Shown here: positions 1,744-8,661 of the stretch, piece after piece
Layout of the letters: the number at the start of each line of letters is the position of its first letter
Position numbering within the stretch: the first letter of the stretch is position 1
From: a virus
Strand: one strand, 5' to 3'
IMG/VR virus record: IMGVR_UViG_3300005805_000051
Span: 1 to 64,000 of that record
Length of the DNA stretch: 64,000 nt
The notes under the pieces: model-generated
What the model saw: the letters and a program-made list of their open reading frames with translations, nothing else
Databases searched by the model: none
What the model was told of the DNA's origin: nothing
Made by a program: the position numbers and the translations under genes

Positions 1744-2393
1744 AGTTCCTCAATCGTGTCATCGGCGTCCTCTTCCCCATCATCGTCGGGAAAGCGTTCC
1801 ACTTCGCCGTCGACGCCGCGTTCATGCTCAACCTCTTCATCCTCTTCTAGTATATCAAAAGAAACGATGCCGTCATGCTCGGCGTCGTGTAAGGAACGTC
1901 GCGCTCGGTTCGCACTGAGCTTCTGCTCGTAGTCGCGGATGAAGTCATGCACATTTTCGTAGGACATCCATGCCGGATCTTTGATATTTGCGGCATCCCC
2001 ATCCTGCGTGGTGTAGTCGGCATTTTGAAGCGTTTGCTCCATCGCATACTTGAGCTTGATGTAGGATTGTTTTTTCTCGCGCTCAATGCGACGAATAAAC
2101 GCGAAGTGCGTAATCTGCGTAAAGTACGCAAACGGATTCGTACTCTTGGCCGGGTCAAAGTTGTGCATATACATGATGCAGTTTTCCACCGCATCACTAA
2201 TCATATCATCGCGAAAGGTATACTGAGCAAAGTTGGCTTTATGTGACAACCGAGTCGCAATCTTCAGCAAACATTCACCGATGTATTCAGGAATCGGTGG
2301 GGGATTCTTTGGCTTCTTTGCGATCTTGTTCCTGTACTTGACTAGTTCTTCAAAGAGCTTCTTGTTGTCGACATAATGATGTTGGCTGGCCAT
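1740..2393 (-). CDS. gp55: Late transcription sigma factor
   Basis: HYVDNK...YIGECLLKIATRLSHKANF...NPFAYFTQI motifs and acidic C-tail. Start moved to ATG 2393 because the longer ORF overlaps the upstream gene. Confidence 0.95.
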   Translation of the reverse strand: MASQHHYVDNKKLFEELVKYRNKIAKKPKNPPPIPEYIGECLLKIATRLSHKANFAQYTFRDDMISDAVENCIMYMHNFDPAKSTNPFAYFTQITHFAFIRRIEREKKQSYIKLKYAMEQTLQNADYTTQDGDAANIKDPAWMSYENVHDFIRDYEQKLSANRARRSLHDAEHDGIVSFDILEEDEEVEHERGVDGEVERFPDDDGEEDADDTIEEL

Positions 2394-2394
2394 A

Positions 2395-2901
2395 TTAGTT
2401 GGGCTTGCCTTTCGGCTTGAAATTTTGCAGCACGTAGTCGAAATACGACTTTCGCACTTCATCCACTGTGGTGTCGGGCGGCAGCGGCTCCGGGAAGGTA
2501 TGTTGCCCGTCTTGCCCCACGGGACGCAACTCGCGAAACACGACCCCGTGATCATAGAGCTTTTCCGCCCACTCGATATAGGCTTGCACAATATTGTCCG
2601 CGAGAGGGGCGATCGTCAGTATGTGATCGAGATAGATGGGAAACATCAGGGCATCGCTCATAGAGAGCCAGCGTTCAAACCGAGTGCGAACGCGAGAGAC
2701 ATTCAAGTCATCTTGCATGTCTGCGGTCTGCTCTAACGATTCATATTGAACGGCAATCGGCCGTTCCAGCATCATCCGGTCATCTTCGGGGGAATGATAT
2801 GCTACCGTGAGGATTTCTTCGCCGGTGATTAGTCGCACGATGACGGGCGCGCCGTCATAGAGGGCGGTAAACCCATCCTCTTTCGGGGTCTGATAGCTCA
2901 T
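2395..2901 (-). CDS. Conserved T4-like hypothetical protein (possible Sm-like fold)
   Basis: VRLITGEEIL N-terminal motif; sits between uvsW and gp55. Confidence 0.7.
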   Translation of the reverse strand: MSYQTPKEDGFTALYDGAPVIVRLITGEEILTVAYHSPEDDRMMLERPIAVQYESLEQTADMQDDLNVSRVRTRFERWLSMSDALMFPIYLDHILTIAPLADNIVQAYIEWAEKLYDHGVVFRELRPVGQDGQHTFPEPLPPDTTVDEVRKSYFDYVLQNFKPKGKPN

Positions 2902-3242
2902 ACTAACTCTCCTTCATCACTGAGGTTATGGGTATATAGTTCGATGGGAAACGCTTCTTCTTTGTAGAACTTTGCGCGTTGCCCCCAATGCTTGAACGCA
3001 TAGTTTACATGTTTGCGGTCATGGGCATCATCTACAATATCCATCACATGCACCACGCGCTTTGAGGCATGAAGGCGTAGACCACGACCGATGCTTTGCA
3101 ATACGCGATAGCGGCTCTTGGAGGGCGATGCGAACACGAGATGGTGCAAGCGACGCACATTGACGCCGGTACTAAAGGTGCCGTACGATGCGATGAGAAT
3201 CGCATCTTTCACCTGTTCCCGCCGGATTGCTGTAGGCTTCAT
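2898..3242 (-). CDS. uvsW: UvsW helicase, C-terminal fragment (motifs V-VI)
   Basis: DAILIASYGTFSTGVNVRRLHHLVFASPSKSRYRVLQSIGRGLR...DIVDD...H..QR..FY.EE.F is the UvsW C-terminus. ATG at 3242. Confidence 0.9.
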   Translation of the reverse strand: MKPTAIRREQVKDAILIASYGTFSTGVNVRRLHHLVFASPSKSRYRVLQSIGRGLRLHASKRVVHVMDIVDDAHDRKHVNYAFKHWGQRAKFYKEEAFPIELYTHNLSDEGELV

Positions 3243-3255
3243 CCTGTACCACCAT

Positions 3256-3288
3256 AAAAAAAGGGGATGTCGTTTTGACATCCCCTTT
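3256..3288 (-). terminator. Intrinsic terminator of the gene inserted in uvsW
   Basis: Minus strand GGGGATGTC-AAAAC-GACATCCCC followed by T7. Confidence 0.85.
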
Positions 3289-3297
3289 AGTATAGCA
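3289..3297 (-). promoter_or_regulatory. Extended -10 promoter TGCTATACT
   Basis: The same 9-mer occurs at 5990, 30728 and 61610, each upstream of a non-structural gene. Confidence 0.6.
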
Positions 3298-3312
3298 CAA
3301 GATGTAGTAGAG

Positions 3313-4167
3313 TTACTCAGGTAACTGCGTGTCGTCTCCGTCACCACCACCCGGATCAACGATGCTTCCCATCGCGACCAAGCACTCGTACTGCACCCGA
3401 CCATTCGGTAGCACCTTGCGGAGATTCCATCCCGCTGACGGTACCTTGCTCTGCTCTGAACGCAGTGCAGCGGTCGCGGTCGACCCCGATCCACCCGCAC
3501 CACCGAAGGTCACGGTCGGTTCACTGGTGTAGTTGATGCCGTTTGCAGTCATCGTGACCGCTAACACACCGAAGTTCAGGTTGATGACCAATCCCGAACC
3601 CACCCCCGTGGTGTTGGTCACATCGTTGTTGGACACACGGGTCGGCAGCGTGGTAAATGCTCCAGCGGTGTTGATTGAGATGGTCAGCACGGTGTTCGAT
3701 GCGGCCGCGTTTACGGTCAACACATTGAACTTCGCACCGGTCGTGGCACCCGCGGCGCCCGTGGTGTTGATGGTCACCACATCACCGGGGGCGTAGTTTG
3801 ATCCACCGGCGAAGATCGTGCTACCCGTCACAATCTTTGCGGTCGCTTGTGCGGTTGCCCCTGAGGCGTCAGGACCGCCACCCGAGAATGCGACGGTCGG
3901 GCGCGCAGTATATCCTGACCCCGCAGCCGTCACGGTTACGGACGCGACCTGACCCGTTACTGAGTCCAGCATTTCATCAGCGGAGACGCCAAACACACCA
4001 GCAGTGTATCCGTTAGAAAATGCGGTGTTGGTCACGAATGCGTTCGCGGTCGTGTTGTTGAACAGGGTATCGCGGTTTGCCGTATTCGGCGTGAGCATAA
4101 CCGACACAGGGCCCCAGATGGGCGAATTGTTGGCTTGGTCTGTATTTCCCCACATGGTCTGTGACAT
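3313..4167 (-). CDS. Putative virion structural protein (Gly/Thr/Ala-rich) inserted within uvsW
   Basis: GSGYT..PTV.F.GG-type modules, MWGNTD N-terminus and GW...GRVQYECLVAM C-terminus. It has its own late promoter, RBS and terminator. Confidence 0.7.
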   Translation of the reverse strand: MSQTMWGNTDQANNSPIWGPVSVMLTPNTANRDTLFNNTTANAFVTNTAFSNGYTAGVFGVSADEMLDSVTGQVASVTVTAAGSGYTARPTVAFSGGGPDASGATAQATAKIVTGSTIFAGGSNYAPGDVVTINTTGAAGATTGAKFNVLTVNAAASNTVLTISINTAGAFTTLPTRVSNNDVTNTTGVGSGLVINLNFGVLAVTMTANGINYTSEPTVTFGGAGGSGSTATAALRSEQSKVPSAGWNLRKVLPNGRVQYECLVAMGSIVDPGGGDGDDTQLPE

Positions 4168-4182
4168 GTTGGTATCCTTTAG

Positions 4183-5547
4183 CTAAAAGTTATCTGACGC
4201 GGAAACGTGCGCTGGCACTTCCTCTACTCTTCTATTTAGTATCCACGCATCGTCCACATCGTCCTCTAGCGTGATGGCTTCTGCTGCTTTTATAGTACCA
4301 TCCACAAGGGGTACCGGTTCCATTGGGATACATCTAACGTATTTATCTCCGAAGGTTAACACGATGTGTTCTGGTTGTTCTAACAAAGCGCGAATCGATT
4401 CACGGGTATCCCCGTCTACTTGACCGCTAACGAAATACACCGGTCGGGTTGATCCGACTCGCGCTTTGATGGCGTGATACAACGGCACCCCATGCTTTTC
4501 CACGAACTGATACAGCACCAGCACATTGCCCTTGAGTTGCTCGGTAAAGCTGACGAGCCACTCCATGCGTTTGGGGTGCTGCACGAGATACTGTATCTCG
4601 TCCACATACCGGCGATGGTGTTCCCGAAGCTGCCAGCGGTCGTGTGAAGAATACTGGAGGAAGTGGCCTTGGATACGGATGGGTGTCAGGTGCCCCCGCT
4701 CCTGAAGGTCGGCTGTGCGCGCCACGCGGTGCGGGGGACCAAAGACGCCTTCCACCATGAGCTTGTTGCTCTTTGCATCGTCTAAGGTACCAGTGACACC
4801 GATCCGGTGCGAACAGTGCGGCAGCTTCTCCATGATGCTTCGCAGCGATTCCGCTTTGAAGGTATGCGCTTCGTCACCGAGCAGGGTACGATACCGACTG
4901 AACCACTCTTCAGGTTGACGAAAAATGCTTTGCCAAGTACTGACGACCACCGGCTTGGTCGTCTCTTTCGTCACCCCACCGGTAATCTGATGCACGGACG
5001 CATCGACATCAGTCCATCCATAGTCGCGCCAGTCTTCGACCATCTGACGCACCAGTGTAATGGTCGGAACCACCAGCAAGACCGGGCCGTCCATCATACG
5101 CGCCCGCACGAGATAATACAGCACCAGCGATTTTCCTGAAGCGGTCGGCGACAGCAGCACCGCACGGGTCTGATGCAGTCCGTGCGTAATCGCGTCCCGC
5201 TGGTAGTCTCGCACGTCTAGATGCGTCGGATAGGTCTGAAGCAATCGCTCGGTATCAAACCCGTCCCATACCGCACGAGACGGCGGGAGCCGATTTTCAA
5301 TCGTATAGCCCTGCTTCGCGGCCCAGCGTTCAATGCGTGACGCAAGCCCTGCGTAGACCATCTTGGTCGTACGATTGAGCAAGCGAACTTTCCCGTCCCA
5401 GCCTTTGCGAAACTTCGACATGTATTGCGAGCCGGGCACGAGAAACGACAGTTCCTCGCTGAGTTCGCGCTCAATGCTCTCGCTTGTCCACACGAAGCAA
5501 TACGCATGCGTGTGCGGTGCGAGAATGATATCAGGAGGGACAGGCAT
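4183..5547 (-). CDS. uvsW: UvsW helicase, N-terminal fragment (motifs I-IV) with a ~60-aa non-helicase tail
   Basis: RDYQ, SPTASGKS, DEAH, TGTL and SGQVDGDTRESIR are present; motifs V/VI are absent. Confidence 0.92.
   Translation of the reverse strand: MPVPPDIILAPHTHAYCFVWTSESIERELSEELSFLVPGSQYMSKFRKGWDGKVRLLNRTTKMVYAGLASRIERWAAKQGYTIENRLPPSRAVWDGFDTERLLQTYPTHLDVRDYQRDAITHGLHQTRAVLLSPTASGKSLVLYYLVRARMMDGPVLLVVPTITLVRQMVEDWRDYGWTDVDASVHQITGGVTKETTKPVVVSTWQSIFRQPEEWFSRYRTLLGDEAHTFKAESLRSIMEKLPHCSHRIGVTGTLDDAKSNKLMVEGVFGPPHRVARTADLQERGHLTPIRIQGHFLQYSSHDRWQLREHHRRYVDEIQYLVQHPKRMEWLVSFTEQLKGNVLVLYQFVEKHGVPLYHAIKARVGSTRPVYFVSGQVDGDTRESIRALLEQPEHIVLTFGDKYVRCIPMEPVPLVDGTIKAAEAITLEDDVDDAWILNRRVEEVPAHVSASDNF
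4233..4239 (-). promoter_or_regulatory. Late promoter CTAAATA
   Basis: Matches the recurring (C/A)TAAATA motif; lies inside the uvsW-N tail, upstream of the inserted gene. Confidence 0.65.
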
Positions 5548-5981
5548 TACGCCCCCTGCGAGAAGCGCAGGTAGTCCACATAACTGCGAATCAGATAGCC
5601 ACGATTGTTGATGTGCTTGATGCAGTCTTCAATGAACTTGAGCTTGAGTTCTTGCACATCCACTTTCCCCGCGAGGGGGAGCAAATCGGTATCGGTGTTC
5701 AGGTACGTATCGACTTCCTGACGCACGATACGCACCGGCTGCGGGTTCCAGCCCAGAGCTTTCCGTTCGTCTTCATCCATGCGCCCGAGATACCACTCAA
5801 ACTTCTGTCGCTTGAGCATATCATAATCTTGCTTGAGCGCGACGTACCGCTGCCGTTCGTGGGTATAGAACTGCCACCATTTGCCGTGCAACAGCGGCAC
5901 CTGCGTGATGGCACGATCAGGCGACGAGAAATCCAGCGTCTTATCGGTATGCCATTCCTGATGGAGTGCGTCGAGTGTCAT
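5547..5981 (-). CDS. uvsY: Recombination mediator protein
   Basis: PLLHGKW, KFEWYLG and I.NRGY.I....DY.RF..G motifs; its stop overlaps the uvsW start. Confidence 0.92.
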   Translation of the reverse strand: MTLDALHQEWHTDKTLDFSSPDRAITQVPLLHGKWWQFYTHERQRYVALKQDYDMLKRQKFEWYLGRMDEDERKALGWNPQPVRIVRQEVDTYLNTDTDLLPLAGKVDVQELKLKFIEDCIKHINNRGYLIRSYVDYLRFSQGA

Positions 5982-5989
5982 AGGTCAGT

Positions 5990-5998
5990 AGTATAGCA
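5990..5998 (-). promoter_or_regulatory. Extended -10 promoter TGCTATACT upstream of uvsY
   Basis: TGn-TATACT located 8 nt before the ATG. Confidence 0.6.
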
Positions 5999-6000
5999 TA

Positions 6001-6573
6001 CTACCGACGAATCTCCACGATGGTGTAGAAGTCATACTCGAACGTGGCGGTAGAGGTCATGACCTGCCCCGGATCAACATTCGTGGCAAACTGCACCTGA
6101 CCCAACGAAGTAATATAGGCGTTGTAGAACAACACGCGCAGAATCGGAATCTTCGCGGGGTTCACAATCGTCAACCCGGCATAGGTTTGCGATGCAAGAC
6201 CGAGTGCGGTTTCATCATTCTTATTGTCCGGCCAGATATAGTTCGCTTGGTCGGCTAAAAACTCTGCGACCACTTCAGAACGGTCGGCCCCACCGGTCAT
6301 ACCCCAGAGCCACTTATACAGTTCACGATGCACCCGAAACTCTTCATCGACAATGAAGGTCACATTCAAGGGATCGAAGTTCAGGCGCTCTGGGGCAAAT
6401 TTTGAAAAGATACCCGCTGTTTGTACGCGGGGAATATTCGCGGTAATCGTAGGTAGATTCACTTCCTGTATCATGAATGACAGATTAGGCATTCGCGCAA
6501 ACCTAATCATGTGATTCTGCGGGTTTGCAGGAAACAGGTTGTAGGTGTCTGCGGGAAGTGAGAGATTACTCAT
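6001..6573 (-). CDS. gp3: Tail tube terminator / tail completion protein
   Basis: PNLSF.IQEVNLP, F.PLNVTFIVDE and F.Y..Y C-terminus; synteny. Confidence 0.85.
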   Translation of the reverse strand: MSNLSLPADTYNLFPANPQNHMIRFARMPNLSFMIQEVNLPTITANIPRVQTAGIFSKFAPERLNFDPLNVTFIVDEEFRVHRELYKWLWGMTGGADRSEVVAEFLADQANYIWPDNKNDETALGLASQTYAGLTIVNPAKIPILRVLFYNAYITSLGQVQFATNVDPGQVMTSTATFEYDFYTIVEIRR

Positions 6574-6581
6574 AGCAGTAT

Positions 6582-7265
6582 TTAGGGCAACTTTCGAGCG
6601 CGATAGCCTTTAGTGTGACCATAAGTGGTAAAGTTTCCCTGACTCAAGCCGTGGTCTTTACAAAACTGACGAAGATTGGTGATGCGTACGATTTCCCCCG
6701 TGGGCATCGTCACTTCCCATTCCGACACATTCGCTTCACGCGCCCGTTGTTTTTGGTGGTCAGTTTGTGGTTTCCCACGACGCTTATCCGCAATCTGTCG
6801 TATTACTTCTGGGGAATGATGGTGTGGGTTATTTCGTTTGCTTTCACTAATCTTCCGTTTGGTTTCTTCGGTATGCGTGGTTCTAATACGAAGATGCGGA
6901 TGTTTTTCATATCGTTCTTTTTGAGCGGCAGATATCCGCTGTTTAGTTTCATTTGTAGGTGTCCATTCACGACCAACACCAATCGTATTCCCTTTCATTC
7001 GCGCAGATTGCGTTTCACGCGCCGCCGGGGTTTTCCAACGTCGTTGCTGAACATGTCGTGCTAGTTCTATCCGCGCAGCTTCTGCTTCCTCTGTCTTCCC
7101 CGCAAGTAATAACCACGCGAGTTTATCTTCAGGACGACCATGCTGTTCCCATAACAATCGATGAGCTTCCGCATGTTCTGTAATCGTAAGACGAATAAGA
7201 TTAGAGGGGTCGTCAGTACCGCCTGCATGTTTGGGAATAATATGATGCCAATGATAAACTTCCAT
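6582..7265 (-). CDS. HNH homing endonuclease with NUMOD3-type repeats
   Basis: HHIIPKHAGGTDDPSNLIRLTITEHAEAH and HTEETKRKISES. ATG 7265 has a GAGG RBS, with a late promoter at 7283-7289. Confidence 0.9.
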   Translation of the reverse strand: MEVYHWHHIIPKHAGGTDDPSNLIRLTITEHAEAHRLLWEQHGRPEDKLAWLLLAGKTEEAEAARIELARHVQQRRWKTPAARETQSARMKGNTIGVGREWTPTNETKQRISAAQKERYEKHPHLRIRTTHTEETKRKISESKRNNPHHHSPEVIRQIADKRRGKPQTDHQKQRAREANVSEWEVTMPTGEIVRITNLRQFCKDHGLSQGNFTTYGHTKGYRARKLP

Positions 7266-7290
7266 ATGATTAACCTCTTTTATATTTAGC

Positions 7291-7324
7291 AAAAAGAAAG
7301 GGGCAGGATTGCTCCTGCCCCCTT
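7291..7324 (-). terminator. Intrinsic terminator after the major capsid gene
   Basis: GGGGCAGGA-GCAA-TCCTGCCCC followed by a U-rich tail. Confidence 0.88.
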
Positions 7325-7356: not shown

Positions 7357-8661
7357 CTAGAATAAGTTGGTTACCTTGACTTTTCTATAGTAAAGATTCG
7401 TGTCGGTCACCAGCGAACCGGGGCTCGCTGCGGTTGCGAACGGGTTGCCCACGGTCGCGTAGCGCGTCTTGAACCCGATCTTCGGCACGAAGCTGTTCGG
7501 GTCAACTGCACGATACATCTGGAGCGGCACATACGGGCAGTAGAACAACCCTGCGTCGTACGGTGACGAACCCTTGTATCCGACGATGAAGTAGTCAGCG
7601 GTCGGGGCCACGGGAGCATACGGGTCCACGAACACCTTGTAGCGACCCTGCAACATACCCGCGAAGGTGTTGCCGGTGTCGTCGACCACGAGGTCAGCGT
7701 TGTAGGCAGGGGTGTAGTCCAGCAGACCCGCAGCAACAAGGGCACTCGCCACATCTGACGAGGTGATGATGATGTTGCCCTTTCCGCGACGGGTGTTCTT
7801 CGCGATAGCATTGGCTTCGCGCTCGATCTGGAAGAACAGACCCTTGAACTTCTCTACCGACCAACGACCATTCGCATCCACGTCGAGGTCGAAGGTGCCG
7901 GCGACTGAAGTCGTGTTCGCACCGTTTGCAGCCACGCGACCAATGGTGCGGACCACTTCACGGTTGATTTCCGCGAGGATTTCTGCGGACAGGATGTTGG
8001 CGAGTTCCGCCTCGGCGTCGAGGTTGTGAACTGCCTTCAAGTCCTGCGCGATTTCCACGCTGTACTCGGCCTTCAGCGCACGAGTCACTGCGGTCGCGGT
8101 GACCTTCTCGATTGAGAATGCCATCTCGGGGATTGCAGTGTTCGATGCGGTTCCCAGACCTTCACCGTTCAGCGTCGACATACCCGTTGCTGCACCGTAA
8201 CCGGCTGAGAACGGATAGGTACCAAGCTGGGCACCGTTTGACGACAGACCGGCTGATGCGTTACCAGCGGCTGACCACTCGGTGTTCGCTTCGTTGAACA
8301 GCGCCTCGTCCCCACCCTGTGAGTTGTAGCGCGAACGCAGAGCGAAGATGAGTCCGGTCGGTCCTGACATCGGCTGCACACCGCAGATGTCATAGGCAAT
8401 CAGGTTCGGCATTGCACGACGCACCAACGCAATCAGAATCGGGTCGAAACCCTTGAGGTTGGTCGCGTTCGGGAATGCACCTGACTGGTTTGCAGGAGCG
8501 ACTTCGTTCAGCATCTGTGCCTGTGAGGCAACTGCTTCGCGCTCCTGATTTTCAAGCACCACGGCGGTAACCGCACGGCGCCAAGAATCCTTGATTCCCG
8601 GCAGACCCTTGTGGTCAAGCAGTGGTGCCCACTTACGTTCGAGTTCGGGCTTGAGATTCAT
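7357..8661 (-). CDS. gp23: Major capsid protein
   Basis: KWAPLL, FDPILIALVRRAMPNLIAYDICGVQPMSGPTGLIFA, YCPYVPL and KIGFKTRY motifs. Confidence 0.98.
   Translation of the reverse strand: MNLKPELERKWAPLLDHKGLPGIKDSWRRAVTAVVLENQEREAVASQAQMLNEVAPANQSGAFPNATNLKGFDPILIALVRRAMPNLIAYDICGVQPMSGPTGLIFALRSRYNSQGGDEALFNEANTEWSAAGNASAGLSSNGAQLGTYPFSAGYGAATGMSTLNGEGLGTASNTAIPEMAFSIEKVTATAVTRALKAEYSVEIAQDLKAVHNLDAEAELANILSAEILAEINREVVRTIGRVAANGANTTSVAGTFDLDVDANGRWSVEKFKGLFFQIEREANAIAKNTRRGKGNIIITSSDVASALVAAGLLDYTPAYNADLVVDDTGNTFAGMLQGRYKVFVDPYAPVAPTADYFIVGYKGSSPYDAGLFYCPYVPLQMYRAVDPNSFVPKIGFKTRYATVGNPFATAASPGSLVTDTNLYYRKVKVTNLF

Follow-up and report, generated by a model that had tools for sequence, protein, structure and literature searches.

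A uvsW helicase gene encoded as two separate conserved genes in a T4-like phage, with a probable intein relic on its N-terminal half

The helicase gene uvsW of an uncultured T4-like phage is here confirmed to be encoded as two separate conserved genes, truly split at a point that codes for glutamate and glutamine (EQ). The window, i.e. the whole stretch of DNA analysed, comprises 64,000 nucleotides (nt), positions 1 to 64,000 of the IMG/VR record IMGVR_UViG_3300005805_000051, and is part of a 109-kb record of this phage. The two genes, uvsW-N and uvsW-C, lie on the minus strand with a gene for a protein of 284 amino acids (aa) between them (Table 1). The reading favoured here, with a probability of roughly 0.7, is that UvsW is made as two polypeptides that most likely assemble non-covalently into one superfamily 2 (SF2) helicase.

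Chain 1, the product of uvsW-N, would contribute the N-terminal and RecA-like 1 domains as well as the first part of domain 2, and would end in an acidic beta-hairpin domain of about 50 aa that is probably a catalytically dead block-B remnant of a split intein. Chain 2, the product of uvsW-C, would start with a short basic leader, MKPTAIRR, and then supply the missing strand together with motifs V and VI. The break itself would go back to a fractured-gene event of the intein/homing-endonuclease type, widespread and patchy among T4-like phages, and the relic tail may serve as a docking clasp, as do those of split NrdA in phage Aeh1; the acidic tail, and perhaps the basic leader too, would help the halves find each other. 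The late 284-aa gene would be a secondary tenant of a position where relatives usually carry an endonuclease gene. The promoter motif TGCTATACT precedes both halves and the tenant would be under its own CTAAATA motif and terminator, so that each set of genes would keep its own, presumed, promoter timing.

The two halves of uvsW

Residues 8-402 of T4 UvsW (2oca) align to uvsW-N (phmmer, E 3e-54) and residues 394-503 to uvsW-C (phmmer, E 2e-18). Like T4 UvsW (2oca, 1rif), a single-chain SF2 branch-migration helicase, the split form has all domains and motifs in collinear order, i.e. the UvsW N-terminal domain, RecA-like domain 1 and a domain 2 with motifs V and VI; unlike T4 UvsW, it is laid out as two chains with an extra tail domain and a leader. 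Motifs V (TFSTGVNV) and VI (QSIGRGLR) are in uvsW-C, where a preliminary description of this DNA had placed them and with the same open reading frame (ORF) boundaries; for uvsW-N that description gave motifs I-IV, and the list made here is I (SPTASGKS), II (DEAH) and III (TGT). No single continuous UvsW polypeptide is encoded: the two ORFs are separated by a stop codon, a full gene and a terminator, and neither half alone holds a complete RecA-like domain 2. The AlphaFold2 (AF2) model of the N core, with a predicted local distance difference test score (pLDDT) of 86, matches 2oca with Z 32.8 and 1rif with Z 31.3 (root mean square deviation 2.3 A). In uvsW-C the helicase sequence picks up again at EQVKD, directly after the 8-aa leader.

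Copies of GAACA, read as the codons EQ, occur at 4380-4376 and 3218-3214, 1162 nt apart. Joining the halves there restores a normal UvsW with no gain or loss, because intact relatives run straight through this point. In about 75 intact uvsW loci from viral and metagenome contigs, N residue ~391 abuts or overlaps C residue 9; a search by C-fragment alignment gave mostly intact distant genes among the matches listed, of use as controls only. The nearest intact relative (L121), which has the same neighbouring genes, is 53% identical to N and 71% identical to C and reads ...FTEEQKSSILVASYG... / ...REYLRQFTEEQKSSILVASYGVFSTG... across the joint. Intact relatives have neither the 63-aa N tail nor the 8-aa C leader, and both are therefore extra ends of the kind seen in genes in pieces. 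The spacing across the EQ joint, given for intact UvsW in the preliminary description, is thus borne out by the intact loci and L121. Its matching GAACA junctions are present in the window but are not conserved across the clade of split genes to which the window belongs: split relatives keep Glu alone on each side of the break (LLEH/REAV, LLES/KEKV), so the repeat is specific to the window.

The same order of uvsW-N, 284-aa gene and uvsW-C was found in contigs from many independent samples (L002, L005-L009, L102, L106 and L108-L112), which excludes misassembly at the junctions, and at the DNA level the split layout is fixed across the clade. Stand-alone uvsW-C homologues of 110-125 aa make up about 45 protein clusters, and PHROG 17901, a 109-aa profile that begins at the uvsW-C Met, is a family of such C pieces. 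In the relatives examined, the two halves are always kept together, collinear and on one strand. A blastn search with positions 2800-5650 gave no match among 50,697 phage records, and a tblastn search of the phage records with a stand-alone C fragment from an NCBI contig (P0040) did not find that fragment's own record.

Divergence among five clade members shows strong purifying selection on each half. Synonymous sites are saturated, with a proportion of synonymous differences (pS) of 0.75-0.95, while the proportion of nonsynonymous differences (pN) is 0.10-0.32 in the N core, 0.22-0.38 in the first ~45 residues of the N tail and 0.13-0.22 in uvsW-C; the 284-aa gene has a pN of 0.20-0.29 and a ratio of nonsynonymous to synonymous substitution rates (dN/dS) of 0.08-0.22. 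Neutral evolution is confined to the last 15-30 residues of uvsW-N, where dN/dS is ~0.7 or higher. Because pN is low against saturated pS, the two halves are not pseudogenes. The preliminary description had named misassembly and relaxed selection as the outcomes to fear; neither was found, and its observation that both halves are open and keep their motifs is confirmed for each half.

These figures also bear on the possibility that the pieces are decaying, or that one or both have separate functions with no joint helicase. uvsW is not essential in T4, and many relatives have stop or frameshift insertions in uvsW-C, which would fit such a course. However, every helicase motif is kept, under strong purifying selection over saturated synonymous divergence, the halves always occur together, in order and on one strand, and neither alone amounts to a complete RecA-like domain 2. 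Decay or a parting of functions is thus considered unlikely.

The preliminary description proposed either a working two-chain helicase or halves rejoined at the DNA, RNA or protein level. Of these, the two-chain helicase is the best reading and is predicted here, whereas rejoining appears unlikely at every level. At the RNA level, the 1162 nt would have to be removed as an intron or bypassed by the ribosome; the joint is seamless at EQ, and T4-type phages do have group I introns in other genes. However, a cmscan search of positions 2300-6100 with 4227 Rfam families, run permissively (E up to 1), matched none of them, i.e. no intron RNA core was found. Moreover, purifying selection acts on the protein sequence that the uvsW-N frame encodes in the first 150 nt of the supposed intron, and a full gene with a promoter motif of its own and a strong terminator lies within the segment. 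Since there is no Rfam match and the intron would begin with selected coding sequence, RNA rejoining, like ribosomal bypass of the whole segment, can be given next to no credence.

The tail of uvsW-N

uvsW-N runs 63 residues past ...RALLEQ. Conservation extends over about the first 48, where F, RC, P, E, PL, G, A, I, DDV and W do not vary within the clade. In the AF2 model the tail folds into four short strands and a helix, a mini-domain predicted with confidence (pLDDT 80-90); the helicase superpositions all end near residue 394 and none includes it. A word-based homologue search with the tail region returned close relatives only, but an exhaustive profile search went further, giving 56 matches among 1.84e9 proteins. 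Most of the matches examined are the extreme C-termini of UvsW N fragments, diverged and mostly from AT-rich phages, and in the profile matches examined the tail was never internal in an intact UvsW.

Six large tail matches were checked against Pfam; four hold inteins (in GyrB, T4-type portal and PolA proteins) and the remaining two are unrelated repeat proteins. In three inspected intein proteins the tail aligns to the block-B region (...L.F..G..I.CTPDH.f.L.DG.yKeAkdLt.eD), and its best PDB match is to residues 73-104 of the NrdJ-1 split intein (E 0.042), which we take to be the end of the N-half, adjoining the natural split point. NrdJ-1 is among the 'fractured genes' of Dassa et al. 2009 (PMC2677866). 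Because the individual matches are short, the case rests on their sum and consistency, and from these sequence comparisons it is concluded that the tail is probably what is left of a split-intein block-B region, no longer able to splice.

The catalytic positions argue for a dead element. The block-B TxxH reads IPME in the window and TPEE or TPDE in relatives, so that the His position is an invariant Glu. Neither block A nor a junction Cys/Ser was found, the tail starting with PEH straight after the helicase helix, and no intein C-half (~35-50 aa with His-Asn plus Cys/Ser/Thr) was found on uvsW-C, which has MKPTAIRR only and Glu at +1. Because Cys1, the TxxH His and the HN end are missing, protein splicing is very unlikely. 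Rejoining of the halves by protein trans-splicing, through an unusual minimal split intein, would still suit a tail of split-intein N-half origin whose end coincides with the presumed natural split point of these inteins. The layout is also that of 'fractured genes' (PMC2677866), yet the absence of the residues listed above, the 8-aa leader and a relic of ~50 aa against ~88-105 aa for known intein N-halves make trans-splicing highly improbable.

Two-chain assembly is the best-supported reading. Split inteins associate through an electrostatic capture step. By analogy, the tail would act as a docking clasp, and physical assembly of uvsW-N with uvsW-C is predicted. Purifying selection on the tail and its confident fold as a mini-domain lend indirect support to a need for it in assembly or activity. 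Several points weigh against this reading. The tail-intein matches are only 15-21 bits each and reach significance when summed over multi-intein proteins, the NrdJ-1 match is weak at its E of 0.042, Pfam searches with single tails alone gave nothing useful, and the 8-aa uvsW-C leader is too short for an intein origin to be tested. Furthermore, the clasp role is drawn from analogy only, the tails of Aeh1 NrdA are needed for higher-order assembly and not for heterodimer formation (PMC3045599), and the AF2 models are of single chains.

Several of the tail-bearing UvsW N fragments from AT-rich phages (P0127, P0134, P0135, P0144, P0149 and P0154) have complete inteins elsewhere, for example after DEC of motif II. 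These extra inteins indicate that uvsW has been targeted repeatedly, by inteins and by endonucleases alike.

The gap, its occupants and insertions in uvsW-C

A DNA pattern for the tail motif retrieved ~40 further split loci, and these show the gap to be a variable slot. The distance from N stop to C start ranges from an overlap (L189) through 24 nt (L214) and 205 nt (L223) up to 0.5-2 kb. An HNH homing endonuclease occupies the gap in L008, L193 and L207 (PHROG 655/12434), and the same HNH motif is found in the gaps of L190, L202, L217, L219, L220, L228 and L229; a GIY-YIG enzyme is present in L203 (Pfam 7e-8), L206 and L210, and an endonuclease of another family in L205. The gap of L195 (6953-8987) has non-endonuclease tenants, one gene resembling methyltransferases (PHROG 5172/799) and one of 386 aa that matched nothing. 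Some split relatives hold no gene there. Two phages that are 98% identical differ by a 317-aa HNH gene (L008:5881-6922 against L009:5881-6007), and L008 also carries a replaced 5' part of uvsW-C, including a TGAC insertion, with a second changed patch ~80 nt further on. This is a fresh homing event of textbook kind, complete with its co-conversion tract.

Split genes with the tail are scattered over a FastTree phylogeny built from 140 N-core rows, and their distribution requires at least six changes on well-supported branches; the window clade (seven split genes) is sister to the intact L121. Such scatter means that the fracture and tail have spread horizontally or have often been reverted, and the comparison therefore suggests a fracture cassette that moves between phages or is frequently lost again.

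The preliminary description had the late gene itself fracture uvsW, i.e. the 284-aa gene would have inserted into an intact uvsW and split it, with tail and leader as by-products. In the window it is indeed the sole gene between the halves, flanked by the 5-nt GAACA repeat, and it is present in all eight members of the window clade. However, many distant phages without this gene have a break at the same point, also with a homologous ~50-aa tail, and their gaps hold endonucleases, other genes or nothing; the tail is intein-like and unrelated to the 284-aa gene, the GAACA repeat is not conserved, and where the 284-aa gene has homologues elsewhere they sit as ordinary genes within structural modules. 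Insertion of the late gene as the cause of the split is thus very improbable. Since the break recurs without this gene, the fracture would be an endonuclease- or intein-type event, and the window a typical fractured gene that has since decayed, in which the 284-aa gene is, to judge from its distribution, a clade-specific later occupant of the gap. The earlier statement that the insert is not a nuclease agrees with the lack of any nuclease match, but the accompanying contrast with typical fractured phage genes does not hold.

No nuclease match was obtained for the 284-aa protein in Pfam, PHROG, BFVD or PDB, so the break in the window is not occupied by a recognisable endonuclease; Pfam gave no match of any kind. 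Weak PHROG matches are to repeats in head, baseplate and fibre proteins, and homologues at 32-44% identity sit in structural modules of a different phage type. The N- and C-ends of the family are conserved (M.LWG..D and AGWNLR...RVQYECLVAM...DD..LP in L010-L021, e.g. L010:4995-5795) around a variable middle rich in Gly, Ala and Thr; L021 (3204-8596) has three tandem paralogues of 318, 323 and 1136 aa and L020 (5001-5330) a 109-aa form without the middle. The AF2 model has a beta-rich middle and BFVD matches down to E 1e-13 to large uncharacterised virion-type proteins, in agreement with the protein atlas, whereas Foldseek found no PDB match at E <= 0.001. No second copy was found in the genome, and a tblastn search of the 50,697 phage records gave no match, so the gene has no cultured close relative. 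The best guess is that it encodes a late virion-surface protein. The TAG stop of uvsW-N and the 284-aa ORF share a frame, five codons apart (4167-4185, minus strand); read-through from one into the other was rejected since the arrangement is not conserved in relatives and is probably a coincidence.

In the window uvsW-C is one open frame with no insertion, and hence no interruption of the bypass type. In many split relatives, uvsW-C is broken exactly between ...ASY and GTFSTG... by insertions of 1-7 nt (1, 4, 6 or 7), most of which hold a stop codon directly after the Tyr codon. The forms found are TAT TGA C GG (L002, L005, L008, L102, L193, L214, L217 and L229), TAC TGA GGA C (L219), TAT TAG GTG C (L203), CTT TTGACTA GGC (L201 and L202), an in-frame TAG TGA or TAG TGC (L189, L207 and L228) and, three codons further on, one extra T in a T-run (L206 and L210). 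Downstream the frame stays open and conserved. In each of the 13 stop-type or 7-nt alleles tested, a hairpin of 10-13 bp (-15 to -21 kcal/mol) ends at the Tyr codon (Leu in L201), with z-scores of -2.9 to -5.6 against synonymous resampling, compared with a mean of -0.2 for 129 intact alleles. The corresponding 8-bp hairpin of the window, GATGCGAT-TCTC-ATCGCATC, has a minimum free energy of -10.8 and a z of -1.7. Selection on this window hairpin was considered and rejected, because in contiguous or intact alleles (mean z -0.2, n=129) the hairpin is mostly a by-product of the DAI..IAS peptide.

Insertions are commoner alongside an endonuclease gene (11 of 13 lineages) than in its absence (5 of 13), by a rough count over lineages that are not independent of one another. 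A +1 shift does not account for the in-frame six-base forms, while a short ribosomal hop over the insertion could explain all forms of interruption. Alternatively, the insertions may be recently disabled alleles that are regenerated by homing. They may point to a short hop or frameshift in translation that is tied to endonuclease immunity, or homing may have inactivated the gene again and again. As a tentative extension, tail, gap and leader may belong to a single mobile cassette that fractures genes and is passed between T4-like phages through endonuclease homing, with the dead intein piece kept as a clip for both chains. The 1-7-nt insertions would be immunity marks against its endonuclease, hopped or shifted over by ribosomes in the manner of a small-scale T4 gene 60 bypass, and the window an end state with the endonuclease lost, no insertion and a late virion gene in the protected, co-inherited gap. 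The odds are judged to be somewhat against this scheme as a whole.

Expression signals, known systems and neighbouring genes

The preliminary description gave the 284-aa gene its own late promoter and terminator, and both are supported. The window has 15 copies of CTAAATA where 4.4 are expected, most of them ahead of structural genes, and this putative late promoter lies 66 nt upstream of the 284-aa ATG in the window and 50-66 nt upstream in all eight clade members. The strong terminator has an equivalent hairpin in all relatives, and the tenant is thus insulated by its own promoter motif and terminator. TGNTATACT has five matches in the window against 0.96 expected, four of which are TGCTATACT, and TGnTATACT is found upstream of uvsW-C in every clade member. 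Because TGCTATACT precedes both, the two uvsW halves appear to be co-regulated. In the window (3253-3297, minus strand) and L002 (2590-2640), the -10 motif sits just upstream of the stem of the 284-aa terminator, whereas in the other clade members the terminator comes first and then the promoter. Transcripts from the former arrangement would lack part of the stem; they would begin inside its 5' arm and could read on into uvsW-C.

The T4 mobA / gene 39 - gene 60 split, with its 50-nt translational bypass, was reportedly treated by Bonocora and colleagues in 2011. It resembles the present case in being an endonuclease-linked split of a T4-type enzyme gene in which the downstream piece, here that of relatives, has a short insertion by a stop codon and RNA hairpin. 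It differs in that the window has no insertion, the gaps in relatives are of 1-7 nt and not 50, and their hairpin precedes the take-off codon on its 5' side; among relatives, only L201, with CUU/CUA, shows evident matching of take-off and landing codons.

A close parallel for two retained chains is Aeh1 NrdA (nrdA-a / mobE / nrdA-b), likewise a DNA-metabolism enzyme of a T4-like phage in two adjacent same-strand genes. It is split at a mobile-element insertion, and extra C- and N-terminal tails that arose with this insertion are required for the active enzyme to assemble, with no splicing involved (Friedrich et al. 2007; Crona et al. 2010, PMC3045599). Unlike that single case, the uvsW split is widespread and patchy, affects a different host gene, has an N tail that appears recognisable as a dead intein fragment and, in the window, has a late virion-type gene in place of an endonuclease.

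The fractured genes of Dassa et al. (gp41-1, NrdJ-1 and IMPDH-1 among others) share with uvsW the succession of an N-half with an intein-derived end, a free-standing gene and a C-half, adjacent on one strand, and a phage DNA-metabolism enzyme as host. The HNH or GIY-YIG genes in the gaps of relatives extend the likeness, while the gene in the window is not an endonuclease. Unlike those genes, uvsW-N would retain ~50 aa of the intein N-half with no Cys1 and no block-B His, and no C-half ending in HN and a nucleophile can be recognised, so that trans-splicing would not be expected. The eight enzyme types listed by Dassa et al. 2009 (PMC2677866) do not include UvsW, and no description of a split uvsW, or of a uvsW with an intein relic, was found in the literature. 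Particular to the window is the non-nuclease late gene that fills the gap.

The locus would represent a natural case in which a selfish intein/endonuclease element has turned a one-chain helicase permanently into a two-chain enzyme, and in which the dead intein piece appears to be kept for a new job, holding the chains together. This makes it testable how phages neutralise gene fracture without splicing and offers a candidate small natural heterodimerisation tag. The gap left by the element appears to have been put to new use: within an early/middle DNA-metabolism operon it houses a late structural gene that has no relation to it, and the promoter and terminator arrangement keeps two expression programmes apart. 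Furthermore, the relatives collected provide a comparative set for a possible new class of short bypass or frameshift sites.

On the minus strand the genes follow in the order gp23, HNH gene, tail-tube-like gene, uvsY, uvsW-N, 284-aa ORF, uvsW-C, Sm-like gene, gp55 and gp47. The end of uvsY shares one base with the start of uvsW-N, and the uvsW-C stop overlaps the start of the Sm-like gene.

Table 1. Coordinates of features at the split uvsW locus (window positions unless a relative is named)
Feature	Position	Strand	Remarks
uvsW-N	4183-5547	-	454 aa; Pfam UvsW_N 1.8e-10, ResIII 4e-17, DEAD 7e-15
uvsW-N core, aa 1-391	4375..5547	-	UvsW N-terminal domain, RecA-like domain 1, first part of domain 2
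uvsW-N tail domain, aa 392-~440	4228..4374	-	Probable splicing-dead relic of split intein N-half block-B region; proposed docking domain
uvsW-N unconserved C-terminal end and TAG stop	4183..4227	-	Length differs among relatives; AF2 pLDDT <50
284-aa gene	3313..4167	-	Gly/Ala/Thr-rich; putative virion-surface (decoration-type) protein
uvsW-C	2898..3242	-	114 aa; motifs V, VI and UvsW C-terminus
CTAAATA, putative late promoter of 284-aa gene	4233-4239	-	Within W-I-L-N codons of uvsW-N
Intrinsic terminator of 284-aa gene	3253..3288	-	12-bp hairpin then T-run, 3288-3260
TGCTATACT, extended -10 promoter motif before uvsW-C	3289..3297	-	Motif count
TGCTATACT, promoter motif before uvsY/uvsW-N	5990-5998	-	Promoter-like site with TG
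8-bp hairpin in uvsW-C	3187..3206	-	In DAILIAS codons, just 5' of Tyr20/Gly21
Insertion regions of relatives, start of uvsW-C	L002:2656-2724; L005:5976-6045; L008:6835-6900		
uvsY	5547-5981	-	Pfam UvsY 3e-19
Tail-tube-like gene	6001-6573	-	Gene order
HNH endonuclease gene	6582-7292	-	Free-standing homing endonuclease; PHROG 655, 1.4e-22
gp23	7357-8661	-	Gene order

The HNH gene between gp23 and the tail-tube-like gene is missing from a near-identical relative (L003), and CTAAATA motifs lie by it at 6579-6585 and 7283-7289.

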